From NCBI GenBank assembly GCA_030390025.1, contig CM059432.1, forward strand, positions 85,686,001 through 85,750,000: DNA of 64,000 nt. Direction: 5' to 3'. The notes under the pieces were generated by a model that searched no databases, was not told the origin of the DNA, and was given only the letters and a program-made list of their open reading frames with translations. Position numbers and translations under genes: made by a program. Within the stretch, counting starts at the first letter, position 1; each line of letters opens with the position of its first letter. The DNA comes from Squalus acanthias (lineage: Eukaryota). Shown piece by piece: positions 7,009-60,554 of this stretch.

Positions 7009-8378
7009 TAAAGTCTTCCTTATCTCTTTTACCATAACACAGCAGCATTGTCTGAACACTGAGAACAGATGGATTTTGAATTAGATGCATTGGGGGGCCA
7101 GTGGAGGTCAGTGAGAATGGGAATGATGGGCGAGTGCGACTTAGTGGGGAACGTGATGCAGGCAGGAAAACTTTGCATGAGTGCCTCTGGGTATTAAATG
7201 ATGTAGTTTGAACTCATACATTCAAAGTATTTGAATTTACCTAAATTTCTTTCACCTGATGACTTAATGACACTCTTGAAGCTATAACTTCCAGTATGAA
7301 GGAGATTTCAAAGAACATGATGTTTGATGCTCAGACACACTGCTCTCATTTTCCTGTACCCCAAAAACCCATTATAACTATGATCCTTAAATACATCAGG
7401 ACAGACTTAAATATATTTACAACTTTTCAAGTATTGCAGCCAAACTAATTTTAAAAACAATTTTATTTTCCTTCTGTAAGGATTATTTATGATTTTCACA
7501 CCTCCACGTTGGGTGTTAGAGTGGGGTTCGTAGACCTGAATCTGCCTTAACAGAAACACACAGATACACTATCTCTCACAGAGATCTTTTATTTAAGCAC
7601 TAACACACGGGTTAAATAAGAAACACAACTTGCCAGCACAGGTACGCCGGGCCGAATGGCCTCCTTCTGTGCTGTAAATTTCTAGACCTGTTCTGGAGTC
7701 TTCAAGTGTCCGATGGCCAAACCGACGATCTCCCAAAGTCTTTTGAAACCTTTAGACGTCTTCTTTCTGCTAGACCAGGACACGTTTGTCCTCACTGACT
7801 ACAGTAAAGGGGCTAGGTATTGTTAAGTTCTTATATTCTTTGAGTCCACACTTCCCTCATGATTTTCACATGCACATCTCAATGATTGGTTCCCTTAAGC
7901 GTGGCTATTCCCCTGGTTGTTCATGGTTGGTTCAAAGTTTAGTGGGGTCACTTCATCACGCGTGTCACTTCTGAAGTTTAACGAGGGTCTTATCTCAAGA
8001 CAGTACCAGTTGCTTCCGCTGGTCCCATCGCAACCCAAGATTTGTCCTTGGTTACAAGCTGCCTTTGTCTGACAAAATTTCTGTTCAATGTTCCTCCAGT
8101 TTAATGTGGTTTAGCCATATTAAAGTTCTTCTTGTTAGGGATTCACTTTGAATGTCTGAACATGTGCAGTTATTTTGTTGTGTACTTCAGTCTAGTTTGA
8201 ATTTCTGTTTGTGGAGAAGCAACTGACCAATTAGGTAAACAAAAAGCTTCTGCAGAGGAGTCTGAGATAGCGCGAAGATAGTAGGAGCAGCCGAGATAGC
8301 TTTTTACTGTCTCCTGGTTTACAATATTTTTGAGAGGTCGCACAACACCAGGTTATAGTCCAACAGTTTTATTTGAAA

Positions 8379-8416
8379 TCACAAGCTTTCGGAGCTATCG
8401 CTCCTTCCTCAGGTGA
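8379..8416 (-). ncRNA. Minimal type I hammerhead ribozyme motif (left-arm copy)
   Basis: Exact reverse complement of 9092-9129. Confidence 0.75.
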
Positions 8417-9091
8417 AGTAAATTGGATACAGAATCGCCAGAGCATATATAGATGGAAAAAAAAGCATGTGTACTTTACAATTGCAGACCAATAAATTAA
8501 ATCATCCTGACTATCTGCCGAGGTGTGATAAAGTTAATTAAGTCAGCCAGGAAGGTACCACATCAAAAGACATAGCAAGATACAACTGAGACAATGAGGT
8601 GTAGTCGCAGGGGTTCCAACGTGTCAAAAGCTGCCGTCTGTATGTAAAACGAAAAGCTTTAAAAAAAATTTACTTTTTTACTGGGAAAATTTTTACTTTT
8701 TTACTGGGAATCACATCTGTGAACAAGCTAACGACGACTCGAGTCCGGATCACGTCATGTATCGTGTATCACATGACGTGATCCGGACTCGAGTCGTCGT
8801 TAGCTTGTTCACAGATGTGATTCCCAGTAAAAAAGTAAATTTTTTTTAAAGCTTTTCGTTTTACATACAGACGGCAGCTTTTGACACGTTGGAACCCCTG
8901 CGACTACACCTCATTGTCTCAGTTGTATCTTGCTATGTCTTTTGATGTGGTACCTTCCTGGCTGACTTAATTAACTTTATCACACCTCGGCAGATAGTCA
9001 GGATGATTTAATTTATTGGTCTGCAATTGTAAAGTACACATGCTTTTTTTTCCATCTATATATGCTCTGGCGATTCTGTATCCAATTTACT

Positions 9092-9129
9092 TCACCTGAG
9101 GAAGGAGCGATAGCTCCGAAAGCTTGTGA
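9092..9129 (+). ncRNA. Minimal type I hammerhead ribozyme motif
   Basis: TCAC-CTGAGGA-A-GGAGC-GATA-GCTCC-GAAA-GCT-T-GTGA: CUGANGA and GAAA cores, 5-bp stem II, TCAC/GTGA stem I, palindromic AAGCTT in place of helix III. Confidence 0.78.
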
Positions 9130-9280
9130 TTTCAAATAAAACTGTTGGACTATAACCTGGTGTTGTGCGACCTCTCAATTTTGTCCACCCCAGTCCAACA
9201 CCGGCATCTCCGCATCATTACAATATTTTCCCATAGTATCATTCCATAAACTAACAGCCAGCAGATTACAGTGTCTGGAC

Positions 9281-9435
9281 CAACGTTCCCTCTAAGCAGC
9301 GCAGCGTGCAACTCTCTGCCATCCTGTGCAGCCCAGGACCGGCTTTTACAATGTTAAATTGTGCGTGAAACTGTGAATGGGCCGCGCAGCCCCTTAAAGG
9401 GGCCGTGCACCCAAAAAAAATTAGGGGGAACATTG
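9281..9435. mobile_element. hAT-type MITE (155 bp)
   Basis: TIRs CAACGTTCCCTCTAA / TTAGGGGGAACATTG; 8-bp TSD GTCTGGAC / GTCTGGAG (7 of 8 match). Confidence 0.8.
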
Positions 9436-9602
9436 GTCTGGAGTACCACTCTGCACATAAACAAAGTATGAGTGAGTGCCTGTTAATTTTGAATTGTGAG
9501 GAGTTTTGCACTGAGACACATGCCCAGCAAAGAAAGACAACTTTCATCCCATCAGGCTGGATCAAACCACATTCACTGAAGTGAAAACACGATGTTCTAA
9601 CC

Positions 9603-10782
9603 CAGGGATGTCCAACCTGCTGCCCTATGGACACATTTGGCCTTCGAGCTTTGGCAATTCAGCCCTCAAAGCCCAGACAATCCAGTCCTATTTTCACCTA
9701 TATTTATTCTGTTGGTTCGCCCTGTTACACACAAGGGATTATCAGAAATTAATACGCATGGAATTGGAGGTAACCTTGTGACATGGGTCGGTAATTGGTT
9801 GGGAGGTAGGAAACAAGAGAGTGGGGATAAAGAGTTTGTTCTCTGATTGACGGGATGTGACAAATGGAGTTTCCCAGGATCTGTACTGGGGCTTCCACTT
9901 TTCACCATATATATTAATGACTTGGATGAAGGAATAGAGAGTTGTGTATCCGAGTTTGCAGATGACACCGAGTTAGGAGGCACTGTAAGTTGTGTAGATA
10001 GGAGCAGGAAATTACAATGGGACATAGACAGATTGTGTTAATGGACAAAACTATGGTATATTGGCCTTAGAGCGGGGTAAAGCGCAGATTCACCAGAATT
10101 AAACCAAGGTTATTTATGAGGACAAGTTGCTTAAACTTGGTTTGTATCCACTTGAGTTTAGAAGGTTGCGGGGTGAACTAACTGAGGCATTTAAAATGAT
10201 AAAGGGATTTGATTGGGTAGAAACAAAGAAAGTATTTCCTCTGGTGAGGGAATCCAGAACAAGGGGGCATAATCTTAAAATTAGAGCTAAGCCATTTACG
10301 AGAGAAATCAAGAAGTATTTTCTCACACAAAGGGTAGTAGAAATCTGAAACTCTCTTCCCCGAAAGGCTGTGGACGCTGGGGGTAAATTCAAATTTTCAA
10401 GACTGAGATCTCAATTGATTTTTGTTAGGTAAGGGGAAATCAAGGAATATGGAGAATAGGTGGGTAAATGGAGTTGATGTACGGATCAGCCATAATCTAA
10501 TAGAACGGCAGAACAGGCTTGAGGGGCTGAATGACCTATTCCACTTCCCATTATCCTGTGTTTGAATGTTGTTGACCTGAAGCTTTAGAAACAGTTATCT
10601 TTAATGCTATTTCCTCATTGATAGATAAATCTTAAATCAGAATACCTGTAATGCTGTTACTATCAGCAACATGAGATATATCCAAATTAATGAGAATATT
10701 AATTTAAAATTTATATGTGCCCTATGAGGCTCTATTGTATGCATTTACACAGCCCGTAAAGACAAAAGATTGGACACCCCTG
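9603..10782. mobile_element. Old hAT/Charlie-like non-autonomous element with a nested CR1
   Basis: Termini CAGGGATGTCCAA / TTGGACACCCCTG; flanks TTCTAACC / TAGTAACT (5 of 8 match). Confidence 0.5.
9722..10555 (+). mobile_element. CR1 LINE 3' fragment
   Basis: GSVLGLPLFTIYINDLD, FADDT, LEFRRLRGEL, RTRGHNLKI; CR1 3' UTR hairpin remnant. Confidence 0.88.
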
Positions 10783-11075
10783 TAGTAACTCACTGTGTCA
10801 CTTTCTTTCAAATGTCGTTGTTTAATAGACTCAGGTTGTAAAAGGACAAATATCAGTTTTAATTAAGCCACTGCTGCAATAGAAACTTTCTGTATGTGTT
10901 GGTACTAAGTTACTCAGCTGTTTGCTTATTGTTACCCACGCACTTGTCCAGTCAATATGACGAACTCCCACACCATCTCCAATCACTGTAACAATCTGAC
11001 AATGAACAGTAAGGCGTCGAAATCACGCTATATGATATGAGTAATGGATATGCGAACCCTTGCAGGTATTGCGGC

Positions 11076-11192
11076 GGACCCTTGTTGGTGTTGCACGGGG
11101 GGAGGACCCTTGTTGGTGTTGCACGGGGGGAGGAGGACCCTTGTTGGTGTTGCACGGGGGGAGGAGGACCCTTGTTGGTGTTGCACGGGGGA
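11076..11192 (+). repeat. G-rich minisatellite, 4 units of 27-31 bp, ending 23 nt before the TERF1 ATG
   Basis: GGACCCTTGTTGGTGTTGCACGGGGG(G)A(GGA) starting at 11076, 11104, 11135 and 11166. Confidence 0.95.
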
Positions 11193-11215
11193 GGGGTGCA
11201 GTTTGTTTGAGTAAA

Positions 11216-11390
11216 ATGGAGGTGGGGAGCCGGACTGAGGGGGTGAGTGGCTCGTCTCTCGGGAATGACTTTTACCAGATGGTGGATGTGGCAAGCGGCT
11301 GGATCGTGGATTTCATGTGTTACTGTCTGTGCCAGTATTTCGGGGCGGGGATGTACGAGGAGTTCAGGGTGGTGAGGGACGCCATGAACG
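11216..11390 (+). CDS. TERF1: TERF1 exon 1 (short N-terminus, start of TRFH)
   Basis: AAAATGG Kozak context. MEVGSRTEGVSGSSLGNDFYQMVDVASGWIVDFMCYCLCQYFGAGMYEEFRVVRDAMN aligns with human VAAGWMLDFLCLSLCRAF. Donor G|GTGAGT, phase 1. Confidence 0.9.
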
Positions 11391-11599
11391 GTGAGTATCC
11401 AAACCCGAGGCTGCGCGTAAATCCTCCATCCCGTTGGGATTAATCACCGTCTTCCTTTGTAGAATCTCACTGAGACCGCTTCATCCACGGCTGGTGCCAA
11501 ATCCATAATCAGGATCGGCTGCTCGAAGCCGCTTTTTTCTCCTCTTTTCCTCACCATCTCTCCTGAAAGTACTGCCTTCTCGCTTGACGCCAGTTACTC

Positions 11600-11860
11600 A
11601 GCCTTCAGCTTCCTCTGGGATCTTGACTAAATGATAATTACTAACACCTAAGGCTTGCTAGAGTTGACAGGTTATTTAACTACAGGGGCAACACAGCCAA
11701 CCTCACCCGAGGTTTGCTGGATGGTGGCAAGAAGCAGGAACTCTAGCTGATTTTTCTTTCCTTAACCCAGGGGCACTGAGGCAAATTAGTATCAAGCTGA
11801 GACCATCCACTGACTGGGAATTAAACCTGGGATCTTCCTACAAGCTGCAGTGTAGGGTTC
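11600..11860 (-). mobile_element. Degraded tRNA-derived SINE (second family)
   Basis: Minus-strand B-box-like CCCAGGTTTAATTCCCAG followed by a CCTCAGTGCCCCTGGG core. Boundaries approximate. Confidence 0.4.
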
Positions 11861-24163: not shown

Positions 24164-24910
24164 CTGGCCAATCAACTCATTTGCTGTGCACAAATTGGCT
24201 GCTGTGTACAAATTGGCTGTCTGGGTTGGTTACATAACAGTAACTGCACTTGAAAAGTAATTCATTCCTTGCAAAATACTTGGGATGTCCTGAAGATGGG
24301 ACAAGCTGCTATATATATGTTTTTTATTTGTTTCCATGGAAGACTGAAAAAAACATTGCACACTTAACCAATGAGGAAGAAAGAAATTGACAGAAGTTCA
24401 CGACAGATGCAAAACATTTTATTTTATTGATGGATAAACAGGTGGAACATCTATGTGTTGTGCCTTGGCGCATTCAATTTCCCCCCACACTTCCAAATTC
24501 CCATCTCGTGCACTGCTGTGAGAGGGAATAATCTGTTAGAATCGGTCCTCATGCTGCTATTGTATGCTTCCTGGCGGTTGGCTTATAGTGGCATTGGAAG
24601 GAGCCTGTGAACAGATCGCCACCTACCTTTGCAGTCAGATGGCTCATGAGCTCAGGAAATTAGGAAGAAAATTGTGATTTTTATATCCAAGAAAAATAAG
24701 TGTGTGGCGGATGGGGAAAGTTCTATAACATCTTAAAAATGTGAGCATGGCTTCCACAGATTTACAAACCGGTGTTGTCTCTCCTTGAAGCATAGTCCTT
24801 TGAAGCCTAATCTGATATTTGAAGATAAGAGTTTGCCATTTCCCCAGCACTCCTAAGTGATTGACTTTTGCATAGAATATACAGGCCATGCAGCCCAACC
24901 AGTCCATGGC

Positions 24911-25099
24911 ACAAAAATGAGAAGTCGCACAACACCAGGTTATAGTCCAACAGTTTTATTTGAAATTACGAGCTTTCGGAGCGCTGCTCCTTCGTCAGGT
25001 ACAGCTCGTAATTTCAAATAAAACTGTTGGACTATAACCTGGTGTTGTGCGACTTCTCATTTTTGTCCACCCCAGTCCAACACTGGCATCTCCGCATCA
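24911..25099 (+). mobile_element. Short Penelope-like fold-back insertion, same family as 8330-9217
   Basis: 64-bp inverted arms (24911-24974, 25003-25066) and the same GTCCACCCCAGTCCAACAC.GGCATCTCCGCATCA tail. TSD (CA)GTCCATGGCAC at 24900-24912 and 25098-25110. Confidence 0.85.
24967..25001 (-). ncRNA. Minimal type I hammerhead ribozyme motif
   Basis: Minus strand reads TAC-CTGACGA-A-GGAGC-AGC-GCTCC-GAAA-GCT-C-GTA. Confidence 0.75.
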
Positions 25100-26463
25100 G
25101 TCCATGGCACGTTTATTCTCCACTCGAGCCTCCTCCCATCCTTCCTCATCTAACTATCAGCATAACCCTCTATTCCCTTTGCCATCATATGCTTATCTAG
25201 CCTCCCCTTAAATGCATCTATACTATTCGCCTCAACTGCTCCCTGTGGTAGCGAGTTCAACATTCTCACCACTCTCAGGGAATTCAGAAGAAACTTCTTT
25301 TCCCAATTTGATTTCTTGGTGATTATCTTATATTGATGGCCTCTAGTTTTGTTCTTCCCCAAAAGTGGAAACACTCTATCAAAACCTTTCACAATTTTAA
25401 AGGTCCCTATTAGGTCACCCATCGGCCTTCTCTTTTCAAGAGAAAAGAGACCCAGCCTGTTCATCGTTTCCTGATGGGTATAACCTCGCAGTTCTGGTAC
25501 CATCCTTGTAAATCTTTTGGGCACCCACTCCAGTGCCTCTATATCCTTTTTTATAATATGGCGACCAGAATTGTACACAGTACTTCGTGTGGTCTAACCA
25601 AGGTTCGTTTCCCTGAAGCTGACTAGTTTGATTGCTCCAGGGGCAGCACCATAGTGGTAGTATATCGTGCATGATTTCTTTGACTGTGCTGTGTTGGGAA
25701 TGTGGGATGTATTTCCTGAGAACTGACTCATGCAGTGTTATGTACAGAGGCCTAGGAATAGGTTGCTTGCCAATCTTACCCACCTGAGAATAGGTGCAAA
25801 GATGGAGGGAAATAAAAATATACATTTTTAAAAATGGGATTTTTAACAATAGTGCCGAGTGTGTTGCTGTTGAAAATTGTACGAAGAGTTTTATATAGAG
25901 AACAGTTCAACATCTATTATAGAATGTTCCATGAGTGTATTGAGCCCTTTCAAAAAACCCAGTTAGTTGGCCCCCTCTCCTGAGGGTGTATGCAGACAGT
26001 CTCTGCTCTTTTGAGGAGTGTGTACGTTTAAGGAAGTGATTTTAACTCTAGCAAGGATTTTGTGTTTTGGAGGTGAGAGTCTTAACGTTGCTGAGGACAG
26101 TGTGAAAGTGACTGGTGTCTCAACTGTGCTTAGGATTTGTATGGGCAGGGGTCCCTACACTTCTAATAGATGGGAGTGCACAACTCTGCTGAGGAAGATC
26201 AACAAAGAGGGCTGATGTAACTGTTCTGTTAGTTGGCATTTCAGCAACGGAGGTGGCAAAGAAAAAGTTTAATCAAAACTGTACAGAAATGTCAAAGTTT
26301 TATATTCCATCAAACGGTCCTTTCTGGTCTACCAGGTTTAGCATGGCATATAAATAAACGCATCTTTTAATTGAGGCACAGACACTTCTGGATTCTAATG
26401 GACAACATCAGAAAGTCTTGTGCTTTTATCAAAATCACTTTTAAAAGCTTTCTTGTTTTGTAG

Positions 26464-33870: not shown

Positions 33871-34217
33871 ATAGTCACTTGATGAGCAAATGTTCACACT
33901 TCATCCAAGCCTAGAATACCCATTAATGCTTTAATGAGGCTTAACCTGACTCCAGCATCTTGGGAGTCCCCCTCCCTGCCCTGCTAGGCCCATTTCTAGA
34001 ATTCCCTACCTAAACCCTCTACCTCGCCTATTTGATCTGTGAATTCAAGATCCTGGCTGGCATTTTTCAGATCCCTGGCACCAGTCCTCCATTTTGTACC
34101 TAGTAGGGCAAGACAGATTCCATCTTGAAACTTGTTCAAACATGTATATCTGGTGTAACAACAGAAAACGCTGGAAAAACTCAGCAGGCCAGGCAGCATC
34201 CGTGGAGAGAGAAAGAG

Positions 34218-34254
34218 AGTTAACGTTTCAGGTCGATGACCTTTCGTCAGAACT
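34218..34254 (-). ncRNA. Minimal type I hammerhead ribozyme motif (second Penelope family)
   Basis: Minus strand reads AGTT-CTGACGA-A-AGGTC-ATC-GACCT-GAAA-CGT-T-AACT; palindromic AACGTT helix III. Confidence 0.8.
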
Positions 34255-34521
34255 GTGACGAGCCGGAAATCAAATAGATTTAAGGCCAGAGTAAAGCTGG
34301 GAAAAGGGGGAGGGGATAAAGGAACAAAGGGGGAGATGAAGAGACATTAAGAGATATGCAAGGCTAGAGGTGGTGTTAATGTGACAGATTAAGGCTGAAA
34401 GAAGTGTGAAATCCACTGGCAGAATGAAGGACAGCTGCCAGCTTCTAGGAGGAAAAAAAAAGGTGGGGGGGGCAAATAAAAGGGTGGAAAAAATAAAATA
34501 TAAATGTGATTGGAGCTGAGG

Positions 34522-35140
34522 TTATGATCTAAAATTGTTGAACTCGATATTGAGTCCAGAGGGCTGTAGCGTGCCTAAACGAAAGATGAGGTGCTGTTCC
34601 TCAAGCTTACGCTGCGCTTCCGTGGAACAGTGTAATAGGCCGAGGACGGTGAGGTCAGAGTGGGAGTGAAGCGGTGAATTAAAGTGACAGGCCACCGGGA
34701 GCTCGGGGTCCCCCTTACGGACTGAACGGAGGTGTTCCGCAAAGCGGTCACCCAATCTGCGTTTGGTCTCCCCAATGTAGAGGAGACCACATCGTGAGCA
34801 GCGAATACAGTATACTAAATTGCAGGAAGTACAAGTAAATCGCTGTTTCACCTGGAAGGGGTGTTTGGGGCCCTGGACAGTGGGAAGAGGGGAGGTGTAA
34901 GGGCATGTGTTGCATCTCCTGCGCGTGCACGGGAAGGTGCCGGGCGAAGGGGAAGGGGTGCTGGGGGTGGTAGAGGAGTGGACAAGGGTGTCGCGGAGGG
35001 AGCGGTCCCTGCGGAATGCTGAAAGGGGAGGTGAGGGGAAGATGTGTTTGGTGGTGGGATCACGCTGGAGGTGGCGGAAATGGCGGAGGATGATCCGTTG
35101 AATGTGGAGGCTGGTGGGGTGAAAGGTGAGGACAAGGGTA
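34522..35140 (-). pseudogene. Penelope ORF C-terminus: linker, CCHH motif and GIY-YIG endonuclease; open but 5'-truncated
   Basis: LVLTFHP...AFRRDRSLRDTLVHS...PCTRRRCNTC...NLVYCIRCSRCGLLYIGETKRRLGDRFAEH...VACHF...GTLQPSGLN. Confidence 0.92.
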
Positions 35141-35681
35141 AATAAATCTATAGATTTTGTGTAGCTCATGGTGAGTCAGAGGTTTTTTGACAAGTAGTAT
35201 TATTGAGACAATGGAAGGGGGGGGTGAGGGGGCTGAATATTAGCAGTGTGGAGAAAGGTTCTGGGAGCACTGGGGAGGGAAGTGTTGGGGTCTGCGTGCT
35301 TTTGATTTGTCATCTTCATGTTGATATGTATTTCTATCTCCTGTACTCTTCTAATTCTCTCTTTTTCCTTCCACCTGCCCCCCCCCCCCCCGCCCCTTCC
35401 TGTCTTTCTGTATATGTGTATTCTATCTCACTCACATTATTTGGGGTGCCATGCAAAGCGCAAGTATGATGGTGAGAGGAGCTGCTGAGAGTTGAAGGTT
35501 GTTGAGTATGGGTGATGGCTGTCAATCGAAACATTGCAACTCATTTGGTACCTGAAACAGGACATCAGTCAATAATTTAATTGATTTACCCCTAGCCATC
35601 AACCTCCCAGGCTTATTAAATTTGCCCACCACAAGAGCAAAGTTATTAACCCCTTTTATTTAAAGAAATCTGCAGGACAAA

Positions 35682-37544: not shown

Positions 37545-37845
37545 CAGGTTGAGCGTCCCGAATCCAGCAACCTCGGGACTGAGGCTGAGTCGGTTTTCGG
37601 GTTTTTCCGGACTTCAGCACGTGTTTCTGATGTCCAAAGTCCGGAAACGCCCGAGTCCAGGTTGCAATATTTCCGGACTTCGGACATCACAAACACGTGC
37701 CGAGTCCGGAAATGCCTGGGCCCAGGTTGCGCTATTTCTGGTTTTTGGTAAACCTCCCTCGGTGTCCGGATTCCGGAACATTTTATGGATTCCGGACCCC
37801 TGCCACCAATCATTCCGGAACTCCGGATTTGTGACGCTCAACCTG
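37545..37845. mobile_element. Tc1/mariner-pogo (Tigger-like) MITE, 301 bp
   Basis: TIR CAGGTTGAGCGTC at both ends (perfect over 13 bp, similar over about 23 bp); TA TSD. Confidence 0.9.
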
Positions 37846-55966: not shown

Positions 55967-57780
55967 ATGACTGCTTCAAGAACAAAGGCTGCTCCCCGCT
56001 TTGATGATGACTTCCTCCATGCTCTTGTGGAGGGAGTAAGAAGGCGCAGGGAGGTTCTGTTCCCTTCCAATTGACGGAGGCAGCCTCCTCGGCACACAAA
56101 GGCAGCCTGGCTGCAAATTGCTGAGGAGGTAAGCGCTAGGTCTGTGTGCTCACGCACCTGGGTTCAGTGTAGAAAAAGGTTCAATGACCTGCTACGCTCA
56201 GCAACCATGAGTATAACATCACACTTGCCTTCAATCTGCTTCCCATCTCCTCTCATCACCAGCACTCTGCATTGTCAACCTACCTGCACATCCCAACTTA
56301 CCCTTACATCCCTTGCACCCTTAACCATCCCTCTCTATGTACCGAATCACTTCACCAACCTACTATGCACCCCTCACACTCGCTCTCACTTATGCAATGA
56401 CAACAACTAACCGCACAGGGAGGGACCTAGGTATTGGCACCTCACTCCATCGTTGTCTCCCTCTAAGCATCTATGTTATGGATTCTTTACACTCACTCCA
56501 TCAATCTCTCTGAAACTCTACTTGTGTCCCTCATTGCAGGAAAAGAGCCCACAATAAGAGGGGGAGGACAGGAGGAGGGCCCACCTTCCATGGCGCATTT
56601 AACTAACGCTGAGGAGGCTGCTATCGAGATCGTCAGAGTTGCAGAGGAGCTGGAAGTGGGGGACGGAGAGATGAGCACAGTACAGCAAGCTGGTGACGGA
56701 ATAGATTTGCAACCCTCATTTAGATTTCATGAGTGACTGATACGGCATCTGATGTTCATAGAGATTGAGTTCTGATCATCTGTGCAATGGGATGTATCTG
56801 CTACCTAAATATTACATGTCTAACTCATGCCTTTACTCCCCCACAGGACCATCGAGAGCCCCTCTCCCCACTATCCAGGAGGAAGAGCTGGACGACTCGT
56901 CGGAGAAACCTGAAGCCTCTGAGGGAGCCGAGTCACCAGAAATGAGCGTACCCAGCACCAGCACAGAGACGCGCACCTCAGTGGGTCCTTTGCGAGATAG
57001 AGTAGTGTTGTCAACTGGTGTATCACAGCTCACAAGTGAGCATCAACAGATGGTGGAGACAGGGACAGCAGTGGAGACTCCTCGTCAGGCTGCTGGACGC
57101 TCTTAGCTCTGCTCAGCTGCATGTAGATGCTGTGCCTCTGGGGCCATCCAGAAAGAGAGCAGTGCTAGAGCTTCAGGAACAAGTGTAGGAGGCTCTGACA
57201 GGGTTTGCAACCATGGTAACTGCAAGTGTGCAGAGAATGGAGGAGTCCATGTCAAACATCAGCAATGCTGTGATGCACACAATGGGAAAAGATGGCAACC
57301 TCCATGGAGGACATAAATCGCCAGACTCCGGAGAACATGGTAACACTTCTAAATAGATGGCCATCTATGGAGGAGAGAAACCAGAGGTTCATGGACGTCC
57401 TTGTTATGAGGAATGTTAGCGCAGAAATGGGTCCTCATGGCCCCACTGATGTGCAGCAAGGTGTTCTCCAGATACTTGCTAGCAGTGAAGTGCGGGCGAC
57501 CCATGAGAGGGATGTTGGTGGTCGACAAGGAAGAGTGGGCTCCTCTCCAAGCGCTCATTCTCCCATGCCACTGCGGAGCCCTCGGTCAGAACCCCAGATT
57601 CCTCACCCAACTGAGTTGGCCGTCTCCGCACCTGCACAGACGCAGGAGGAGCAAACTTTTGGGGAGCTTTCCCAGGCTCCCAAACCTAGAGGACGCCCGC
57701 CAAAAGCAGCAGAGAAGTGAGCAAGCTGCCTCTACGTCTGCTGAAGCTACAGGGGAAGCACCATGTAAGAGAAACCTAAC
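55967..57780 (+). pseudogene. Harbinger Myb/SANT-like (MADF/trihelix) DNA-binding gene, about 3 exons, inactivated
   Basis: MTASRTKAAPRFDDDFLHALVEGVRRRREVLFPSN*RR...AWLQIAEEVSARSVCSRTWVQCRKRFNDLLR. Stop at 56072; donor decayed to ATGAGT (56207); acceptors near 56539 and 56847. Confidence 0.8.
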
Positions 57781-58074
57781 ACACATAGTCACAAGGGTAG
57801 TCACTTGGGTGTTTTGATATAATACAAAGTTACGTTTGTCATCTTTATTTCTATTGTATTAAACAAATACGATGTCAAAGAATCAAAGAGTTGGCCGATG
57901 TGTGCTCAGAATTGGAAGTGACACAGTAAGGGGTGAGGGTGCCTTTCATCTGCAGTGATGGTGGGGAGAGTGACAGGAATGCACAGTTAATTGTACAGAT
58001 GCTGTATGGTGTGTAATGACGGTCCTGCAAACCCTCATATCCATGTGCCAGCCACATGTCTTTGCTGCGTAAAG

Positions 58075-59053
58075 TTACGCGAATCTGGCATGGATTAGTG
58101 CATCTCTTGCCTCACAGCCATCAATGTGCTGATGGCACTGGGACATTCGCTTCCGCCAGGTCTTCCTCATCTGCACCCTCATTTGGCTATTCCTCCTCCT
58201 CTGAGGAGGCTGTGCGCTCTGCCACTTTTTCCTCAGGCAGTGGTAAGCCATGCTGCAGTGTGATGTGCAGGGCACAGCAGATGACGATGATTCTGGACAC
58301 CCTGGCTGGTGCGTACTGAAGGGATCCACCAGATTTGTCCAGGTATCTGCAGCGCATTTTGAGCAAGCCTATGGTTTGCTCTATGAGGCTTCTGGTGGAA
58401 ATGTGGCTGTCATTGTAGTGCTCCTCAGATTCGTTTGATGGCCTCCTCATCGGTCTCATTAGCCACGTCTTCAGGGGATAGCCCTTGTCTCTAAGTAGCC
58501 ATCCAGAAAGTTGGGTTGGCGGATTGAAGAGCTGAGGCACAGTAGACTGCCGCAGGATGAACGAGTCATGGCAACTGCCAGGGAACTTTGCGCAAACATG
58601 CATAATGTTCTTCCTGTGGTTACACACCAGCTGGCCGTTAAGGGAGTGGAAGCCCTTGCGGTTCACAAATACAGCTGGGTTGTGATGGGGTGCCCTGATG
58701 GCCACATGTGTGCAGTCGATGATGCCCTGCACCCTTGAGAAGCCTGCCAGATTGGCAGTAACACTTGCTTCATCCGTTGAGAAGTGGATGTAATTGTGCG
58801 ACTTGGCAAGCAGGGCATCGGTAACCTGCGTGATGCAACTGTGTGCGGCTGACTGGGAGATGTCGCTGATGTCTGCTGCTGATCCCTGGAAGGACCCTGA
58901 AGCAAAGAAGTTGAGGGCGGTGGTGACTTTGACAGCCACTGGTAAGGAGTGTCCACCCGCTCCTCTGGGCTGCAGGTGTTGGTGCAGCATTGTGCAGATG
59001 TTAGCAATTACCTCTCCTGAAAGTCTCAGCCTCCTTTGGCACTGCTGCTCACT
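58075..59053 (-). pseudogene. Harbinger (HARBI1-like) DDE transposase, main part
   Basis: [62 protein letters not shown]; frameshifted C-terminus ARDALIHARFA*. Confidence 0.92.
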
Positions 59054-60554
59054 TTTTGTTTTATTATTCGTTCATGGGATGTGGGCGTCGCTGGCGAGGC
59101 CAACATTCATTGCCCATCCCTAATTGCCCTTGAGAAGGTGGTGGTGAGCCGCCGCCTTGAACCGCTGCAGTCCGTGTGGTGAAGGTACCCCCACAGTGCT
59201 GCTAGGGAGAGAGTTCCAAGATTTTGGACCAGCGACGATGAAGGAACGGCGATATACTTCCAAGTCAGGATGGTGTGTGACTTGGAGGAGAACTTGGAGG
59301 TGGTGGTGTTCCGATGCGCCTGCTGCCCTTGTCCTTCTAGGTGGAAGAGGTCGCGGGTTTGGGAGGTGCTGCCGAAGAAGCCTTGGCGAGTTGCTGCTGT
59401 GCATCTTGTAGATGGTACACACTGCAGCCACGGTATGCCGGTGGTGGAGGGAGTGAATGTTTAACGTCATGGATGAGGTGCCAATCAAGCGGGCTGCTTT
59501 GTCCTGGATGGTGTCGAGCTTCTTGAGTGTTGTTGGAGCTGCACTCATCCAGGCAAGTGGAGAGTATTCCATCACACTCCTAACTTGTGCTTTGTAGATG
59601 GTGGAAAGGCTTTGGGGAGTCAGGAGGGGAGACACTCGCCGCAGAATACCTAGCCTCTGACCTGCTCTTGTTGCCACAGTATTTATGTGGCTGGTCCAGT
59701 TAAGTTTCTGGTCAATGGTGACCCCCCAGGATATTGATGGTGGGGGATTCGACAATGGTAATGCTGTTGAATGTCAATGGGTGGTGGTTAGACTCTTGCT
59801 TGTTAGAAATAGTCATTGCCTGGCACTTCTGTGGCGCGAATGTTACCTGCCACTTATCATCGTCCAGGTCTTGTTGCATGCGGGCATGGACTGCTTCATT
59901 ATCTGAGGAGTTGTGAGTGGCACTGAACACTGTGCAGTCATCAGCGAACATCCCCATTTCTGACCTTATGTTGGAAGGAAGGTCATTGATGAAGCAGCTA
60001 AAGATGTTTGGGCTTAGGACACTGCCCTGAGGAACTCCTGCAGCGATGTCCGGGGACTGTGATGATTGACCTCCAACCACCACAACCATCTTCCTTTGTG
60101 CTAGGAATTACTCCAGCCAGTGGAAAGTTTTCCCCCAGATTCCCATTGACTTCAGTTTTACTAGGGTTCCTTGATGCCACACTCGGTCAAATGCTGCCTT
60201 GATGTCAAGGGCAGTCACACTCACCTCACCTCTGGAATTCAGCTCCTTTGTCCACGTTTGGACCAAGGCTGTAATGAGGTCGGGAACCGAGTGGTCTTGG
60301 CGGAACCCAAACTGGGCATCAGTGAGCAGGTTATTGGTGAGTAAGTGTTGCTTGATAGCACTGTTGATGACACCTTCCATCACTCTGCTGATGATTGAGA
60401 GTAGACTGATGGGGCGGTAATTGGCTGGATTGGATTTGTCCTGCTTTTTGTGGACAGGACATACCTGGGCAGTTTTCCACATTGTCGGATAGATGCCAGT
60501 GTTGTAGCTGTACTGGAACAGCTTGGCTAGAGGAGCAGCTAGTCTGTAGCACAA
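59054..60554 (-). mobile_element. Zenon-like LINE, 3' part, inserted in the transposase
   Basis: Peptide nearly identical to 2855-4129; tail at 59054-59075. Confidence 0.92.

Follow-up and report, generated by a model that had tools for sequence, protein, structure and literature searches.

A 0.9-kb fold-back insertion, probably a recent by-product of a Penelope-like element, upstream of TERF1 in Squalus acanthias

The window analysed here, a 64,000-nucleotide stretch of Squalus acanthias DNA (contig CM059432.1 of assembly GCA_030390025.1, positions 85,686,001 to 85,750,000), contains ahead of the TERF1 gene a 0.9-kb unit, hereafter copy 1, which is bounded by 12-bp target-site duplications (TSDs) and folds back on itself over most of its length. 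An earlier note on this DNA had read it as a young, non-coding Penelope insertion with a hammerhead ribozyme on each strand. This raises the questions of whether the fold-back is real, what kind of element produced it and by which steps, and whether it is likely to have any consequence for the neighboring gene. The parts of copy 1 are as follows (the hammerhead motifs are matches of a descriptor):

8319 to 8330, no strand: left TSD, 12 bp, 11 of 12 bases A or T; base 8330 is common to the TSD and the left arm
8330 to 8760, minus strand: left arm, 431 nt with the duplication; it repeats the element's 3' end in inverted orientation, is 5'-truncated and lacks the tail
8379 to 8416, minus strand: minimal type I hammerhead motif in the left arm, core start at 8412
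8663 to 8710, no strand: 23-nt tandem duplication, confined to the left arm
8761 to 8770, no strand: spacer, 10 nt
8771 to 9178, plus strand: right arm, the 5'-truncated 3' end of the element, oriented as TERF1
9092 to 9129, plus strand: minimal type I hammerhead motif in the right arm
9179 to 9217, plus strand: tail, 39 nt, one-sided, equal to the family 3' end
9218 to 9229, no strand: right TSD, a 12-bp direct repeat of the left one

Alignment of the left arm (8330-8760) with the right arm (8771-9178) gives no mismatch over 408 bases (408/408), and the only interruption is a single 23-nt gap, just as had been claimed of the arms; the 10-nt loop, the 39-nt unpaired tail and the 12-bp TSD also came out the same on re-measurement. 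At least the first 6 nt of the spacer are probably left-arm family sequence, because one contig of the public run X5 (see below) jumps from 8766 to 8862. Stop codons interrupt all six frames of the right arm plus tail, in agreement with the non-coding nature proposed earlier, and the observed/expected CpG ratio is 1.33 in 8771-8920, as against 0.56 in the remaining arm and 0.35 in the whole window, which bears out the view that the CpGs at the apex are intact. Separately, the A/T run at 8820-8842 is a hotspot of the family: among contigs of X1 and X5 it varies in length several times over and shows two tandem duplications that are not the same.

Could the fold-back be an artefact of the assembly or of a chimeric read? 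None of the listed pieces of public contigs crosses the apex or the filled junctions, and the sampled runs appear to carry the empty site, both of which would suit such an origin. Against it, the inversion ends at the 12-bp TSD and unique flank resumes on either side, whereas a chimera would mirror the flank too; moreover, the arms are unequal, given the 23-nt duplication and the 39-nt tail, and the layout is repeated, with its own TSD, by a second copy. We hence regard an artefact as extremely improbable. The second copy was recovered by self-BLAST of the window:

24901 to 25110, no strand: copy 2, a second fold-back of the same family, in a TERF1 intron

The presence of this second family fold-back within the TERF1 intron is new here. 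Its TSD of 12-13 bp differs from that of copy 1 and has A or T at 5 of 12 positions, and its arms are equal at 64 of 64 paired bases. The left arm alone has about 25 nt of additional family sequence, including the hammerhead core, while the right arm alone has the tail of about 33 nt. Between the two copies 5 of the 97 shared bases differ; the hammerhead core is retained in copy 2, where position 7 and loop II read differently, and position 17 is U in copy 1 and C in copy 2. Thus, both family insertions in the window (2/2) are fold-backs that share a common 3' end and differ in their truncation points, a pattern to be expected of retro-copies, but neither of a DNA transposon nor of chimeric reads.

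MITEs and foldback-type DNA transposons have terminal inverted repeats that are flush with both TSDs, and their ends are fixed among copies. An element of this type, with long terminal inverted repeats and an incidental hammerhead, would account for long inverted arms within TSDs and for the want of coding capacity. However, the tail is one-sided, so that the inverted repeat stops short of the right TSD; the arms measure 408 nt in one copy and 64 nt in the other despite the common 3' end, which is typical of 5'-truncated retro-copies; and the hammerhead belongs to the minimal type seen in Penelope-like elements (PLEs). Such a DNA transposon is accordingly scarcely credible as the source. Likewise, non-LTR retrozymes are defined by head-to-tail tandem repeats of a hammerhead-bearing unit (10.64898/2026.07.22.740005), whereas the arms of copy 1 stand head to head.

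The hammerhead descriptor, applied to both strands of the window, gave three matches, at 9096 (plus), 8412 (minus) and 34250 (minus), and none in any of 20 length-matched first-order Markov controls. The first two are the cores of copy 1, so that a hammerhead motif on each strand, as the earlier note had it, is indeed present. The motif in the right arm comprises a 4-bp stem I, the core at 9096-9102, one extra base, a 5-bp stem II, GAAA and a palindromic remnant of helix III, with the cut predicted after the U at 9125. It carries the features of the PLE-type minimal form, namely the core boxes together with a short stem I, the extra base at 9/10.1, G10.1-C11.1 and the palindromic 15.2-16.2; the last four, along with a possible dimer, are shared with the minimal hammerheads described in the portion of PMC4209133 compared here, although the stem II of 5 bp differs from that of the Schistosoma minimal hammerhead (7-8 bp). 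That portion includes no minimal hammerhead of a cartilaginous fish, while its supplements may list further vertebrate motifs, and in the accessible part of PMC6155905 sharks appear solely in connection with the name of the ribozyme. Rfam reports no family in the window at gathering score, hammerhead models included, and the ribozyme assignment therefore draws on the descriptor matches, together with their likeness to the motifs of Cervera and de la Pena 2014. An Rfam hit to mir-879 in an arm of copy 1 (E 1.3) was set aside as a chance match.

Of the Penelope anatomy that had been claimed, the inverted 5'-truncated copy, the one-sided tail, the TSD and the minimal hammerheads are all present. 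The head-to-head inverted copy recurs in both family insertions of the window, the tails (39 nt and about 33 nt) lack poly(A), and the TSDs are short (12 bp and 12-13 bp). The A/T content of the target is 11/12 in copy 1 and 5/12 in copy 2, the preference of the PAc element (see below) being AT-rich; the family hence shows every non-coding PLE hallmark examined, save a consistent AT-rich target. DNA-pattern scans for the RT/GIY-YIG ORF of the family returned 0 loci in viral contigs and 0 in metagenome contigs, and a locus in genome contigs (L001) proved to be a 24-nt chance match within a bacterial gene. A peptide search with the 42-aa reading of the tail frame of copy 2 had 0 matches, which is weak evidence; the 39-aa reading of the tail frame of copy 1 led to a 4,818-aa repeat protein (P0003), matched through 15 summed stretches and devoid of an RT or GIY-YIG family, and was rejected. 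As these searches tied no such ORF to the family, its membership in the PLEs rests on the non-coding hallmarks. Elsewhere in the window, 34160-35175 (minus strand) is the 3' part of a different PLE family, consisting of the end of a GIY-YIG ORF (Pfam PF01541, E 1.4e-4), a UTR and the hammerhead at 34250. In that family a GIY-YIG ORF end is followed by the same type of hammerhead, which by analogy would lend indirect backing to the PLE assignment. On these grounds copy 1 is, with high confidence, an insertion of PLE type.

Comparison with known systems places copy 1 within a familiar scheme. PLEs typically have an inverted 5'-truncated copy and a one-sided tail of 30-40 bp (PMC8557442), and Pen2/Pen2a of Adineta vaga have an inverted pLTR, a 31-bp tail and a TSD of 8-10 bp (PMC3846280). 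Copy 1 agrees with both in its head-to-head inverted truncated copy, one-sided tail and short TSD, and the layout is hence usual for PLEs and not special to this locus. It differs from Pen2/Pen2a in that both of its halves are truncated, which leaves no internal ORF, in its 12-bp TSD, and in that its arms are long and still perfect. With PAc, the Poseidon element of Anolis carolinensis (Frangieh et al. 2024, PMC11167929), it shares a hammerhead near the 3' end; in PAc the tail is bounded by two RT start sites, the target is AT-rich and both strands are cut and extended in vitro. The ORF of PAc starts inside the hammerhead, whereas the family of copy 1 has no start codon there. Insertion of PAc in vitro does not require cleavage by the ribozyme (PMC11167929). 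A paper of 2014 (PMC4209133) reports pairs of minimal hammerheads that lie on opposite strands at distances of 100-700 bp, and siRNAs were mapped to inverted Penelope parts in transgenic Drosophila (review PMC3681739); hammerheads on both strands and small RNAs from inverted copies had thus already been described. As in the inverted Drosophila Penelope copies, the inverted repeats of copy 1 are long and might yield dsRNA. Our search of the open-access literature found no relevant description of such fold-backs in sharks, which is not proof of absence.

A further parallel is provided by the 320-bp Alu quasi-palindromes studied in yeast, which are of similar arm length, near-perfect and with a short spacer; in these, breaks drop by about 80% past a spacer of 8-9 bp, with no fork pausing seen (PMC8053094). 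The spacer of copy 1, at 10 nt, lies just over this transition, which is known from yeast data only, and copy 1 additionally differs in having a 23-nt bulge 75 bp from the apex.

Contigs of four out of 24 listed public runs were aligned to 8731-11050, a segment that covers the apex as well as the right arm with its tail and the flank on that side, and leaves most of the left arm outside. Three of the runs are non-RNA and come from three studies: X1 and X5, from two of these, represent organism A, and X7 represents a relative, organism B. The remaining run, X6, is tentatively taken to be RNA, and its coverage of the arm was left out of account. The 3' end of the family is sharp, as 137 X1 and 114 X5 contigs enter unlike flanks behind 9217/9218. 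The summed X1 depth is 0.5-5.4 million over the arms against about 12 in the flanks, which is a sign of abundance and not a copy number; the depth is lower over the tail, a drop from which no number of tail-less copies was derived. In X7, the bins at 8887-9042 have no cover at 88% likeness, and no weight was put on this. In the right flank, 9355-9432 is a short high-copy repeat with a summed X1 depth of about 100,000.

Each of the three non-RNA runs also has a contig at single-copy depth that departs exactly where the right TSD starts, at 9218 (3/3). The X1 contig follows the flank rightward from 9218 for 362 nt at a depth of 11.9 with 0 differences, and the X5 contig for 407 nt at a depth of 12, again with 0 differences; in both, the other side consists of 219 letters that are not the tail. 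The X7 contig, which starts at the same base, extends over 348 nt at a depth of 12.1 with 6 differences and 2 gaps, its other side being 210 non-tail letters. These contigs likely represent the empty site, as judged from the point of departure and not from the letters beyond the stretch; X1 is possibly the window's own sample. Given that contigs parting at the TSD are read in this way, the insertion is likely to be recent and unfixed, i.e. absent from other chromosomes of the species, and the young, polymorphic state suggested for copy 1 thereby becomes likely. The filled right junction and the apex are crossed by none of the 32 pieces listed out of 82,181, and none of the 15 joints listed out of 358 changes strand. 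The filled allele hence depends wholly on the assembly of the window.

The same contigs inform on the 23-nt duplication. Its junction is present in an X1 contig with a depth of 135.5, where single-copy depth is about 12 and contig depth does not equal copy number, and X5 has a different duplication at the same spot with a depth of 43.2. Consequently, the duplication is likely to be a variant of the family, and hence of the template, or a recurrent slip of the RT.

How might such a fold-back have arisen? The protein of PAc acts on both strands, cutting and extending them, and two RT start sites bound the tail; the inverted joining is left without explanation in the portion of PMC11167929 on which we draw. 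Building on this precedent, we would picture the GIY-YIG endonuclease nicking the two strands of AT-rich DNA 12 nt apart. The end of the bottom strand would then prime reverse transcription from the outer start site and so yield the right arm with its tail, while the end of the top strand would prime from the inner one, which lies 39 nt further in, and so yield the left arm without a tail. Both cDNAs would halt after about 0.44 kb and be joined head to head, with fill-in generating the TSD, and the two templates would have come from one source lineage, the identity of the arms being observed and its cause conjectural.

The main competitor of this scheme is one in which the same PLE insertion acquired its second arm by self-priming, the cDNA folding at a 3' short palindrome and copying itself, or in which the arms were homogenised after insertion. 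Self-priming has been put forward for head-to-head PLE junctions (PMC3846280), and the arms are identical at 408/408 and 64/64 positions though the two insertions differ from each other at 5/97. Were the two templates independent, the chance of perfect arm identity would be 8e-10 at 5% divergence and 0.017 at 1%; perfect identity is therefore very improbable for random family templates and calls for one source lineage or later homogenisation. Identity as such fits self-copying or homogenisation equally well. What speaks against self-priming is that in copy 2 the core is solely on the left and the tail solely on the right, so that plain copying of one arm from the other accounts for neither; since family sequence is present in each arm that is missing from its partner, two primings are favored over simple self-copying. 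In copy 1, similarly, only one arm has the 23-nt duplication, and the X1 depth of its junction (135.5 against about 12) suggests a template variant or recurrent RT slip. We therefore lean toward reverse transcription primed on both target strands and treat self-priming as a serious rival, albeit a doubtful one. In the open-access literature nothing relevant to a two-template model was found besides PMC11167929, which again is not proof of absence. As a whole, we think it probable that this genuine fold-back of 0.9 kb was left by an abundant PLE, likely as a non-coding by-product of recent date, and likely with priming on both nicked strands.

Copy 1 would give rise to no protein. Transcription through the whole insertion is predicted to yield a single hairpin of -774.7 kcal/mol, i.e. 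about 400 bp of dsRNA, as had been anticipated. It had further been expected that the ribozyme fold would compete with this hairpin, but the pairing probability of hammerhead stems I and II is 0.0 in the read-through RNA (computed for the plus strand and, by symmetry, for the minus strand), and likewise at a predicted 0.0 in a nascent RNA ending at 9130. The ribozyme is predicted to lose the competition because, in a head-to-head fold-back, the sense ribozyme always sits in the arm that is transcribed second; the hairpin is thus predicted to bury the ribozyme in read-through RNA of either direction. Among the RNA starts tried, stem II was predicted (0.997-0.999) only for starts at or beyond 8430. 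In the dimer form of the hammerhead all pairs are canonical, with a computed energy of -24.9 kcal/mol against -29.6 kcal/mol for the cofold optimum; monomers of minimal hammerheads are inactive and dimers weak (PMC4209133).

We then considered the position of the insertion relative to TERF1, the relevant neighbor outside the element being:

11216 to 11390, plus strand: first coding exon of TERF1, ATG at 11216

This exon matches the TRFH domain of human TRF1 in PDB with E 5e-5, Pfam giving no recognition of it, and 52551-52691 matches the TRF1 Myb domain with E 3.5e-21. The identification of a TERF1 gene about 2 kb downstream thereby stands, the insertion lying 1,987 nt before the ATG. Its supposed location next to the TERF1 promoter does not: the likely promoter is the CpG-richer 5' region of the gene at 10801-11700, at least 1.6 kb from the insertion, with high-copy repeats in between. 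The idea of a CpG promoter further upstream, at 7.9-8.3 kb, received no support from the CpG profile. Immediately before the gene, 11076-11191 is a 31-nt minisatellite of 3.8 copies that ends 25 nt before the ATG, and this is a closer candidate than the fold-back for variation in TERF1 expression.

It might nevertheless be argued that copy 1 is a functional regulatory allele, acting either through a pLTR promoter in the right arm aimed at TERF1 or through silencing of the TERF1 promoter drawn by the hairpin. The right arm shares the direction of the gene from 2 kb upstream, the 3' pLTR of D. virilis suffices for transcription, by which genes downstream of it could be driven (PMC2377424), and hammerhead stem II is predicted to come free (0.997) in an RNA whose start is at or beyond 8430. 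These points are countered by the distance to the CpG-richer region and the intervening repeats, by the great abundance of the family, from which a single copy near a gene is to be expected, and by the apparently unfixed state of the insertion site. A regulatory role is thus very unlikely, and a shade less likely still is a segregating fold-back that serves as a cis-regulatory allele of TERF1, with carriers differing in shelterin dose and telomere length. We are correspondingly confident that copy 1 has no measurable effect on TERF1; it would most likely be neutral or mildly unstable.

Several other features of the window were recorded in passing. The flanks of the insertion lie between 6-bp TG...CA inverted ends at 7514-9256, about 0.84 kb apart when the insertion is disregarded, and are possibly an old solo LTR, for which no TSD was seen. 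A third, imperfect inverted repeat at 37583-37712 (77% over 115 nt) is CpG-rich and unrelated to the fold-back family. At 58187-59071 (minus strand) a frame of 294 aa reads as a DDE transposase of Harbinger type (Pfam DDE_Tnp_4, E 3e-33), and more frames lie on the opposite strand at 56075-57817.

In kind, then, copy 1 is ordinary, being the usual footprint of a very abundant retroelement, and as a single locus it is of little import by itself. The steps by which PLEs form inverted copies have been called undefined (PMC8557442), and young fold-backs with differing arms, such as copies 1 and 2, are natural test material for models of this process. The likely presence/absence polymorphism 2 kb from TERF1 would also be a cheap marker, and copy 1 offers a test of whether a near-perfect palindrome of 400 bp is tolerated or affects the neighboring gene.
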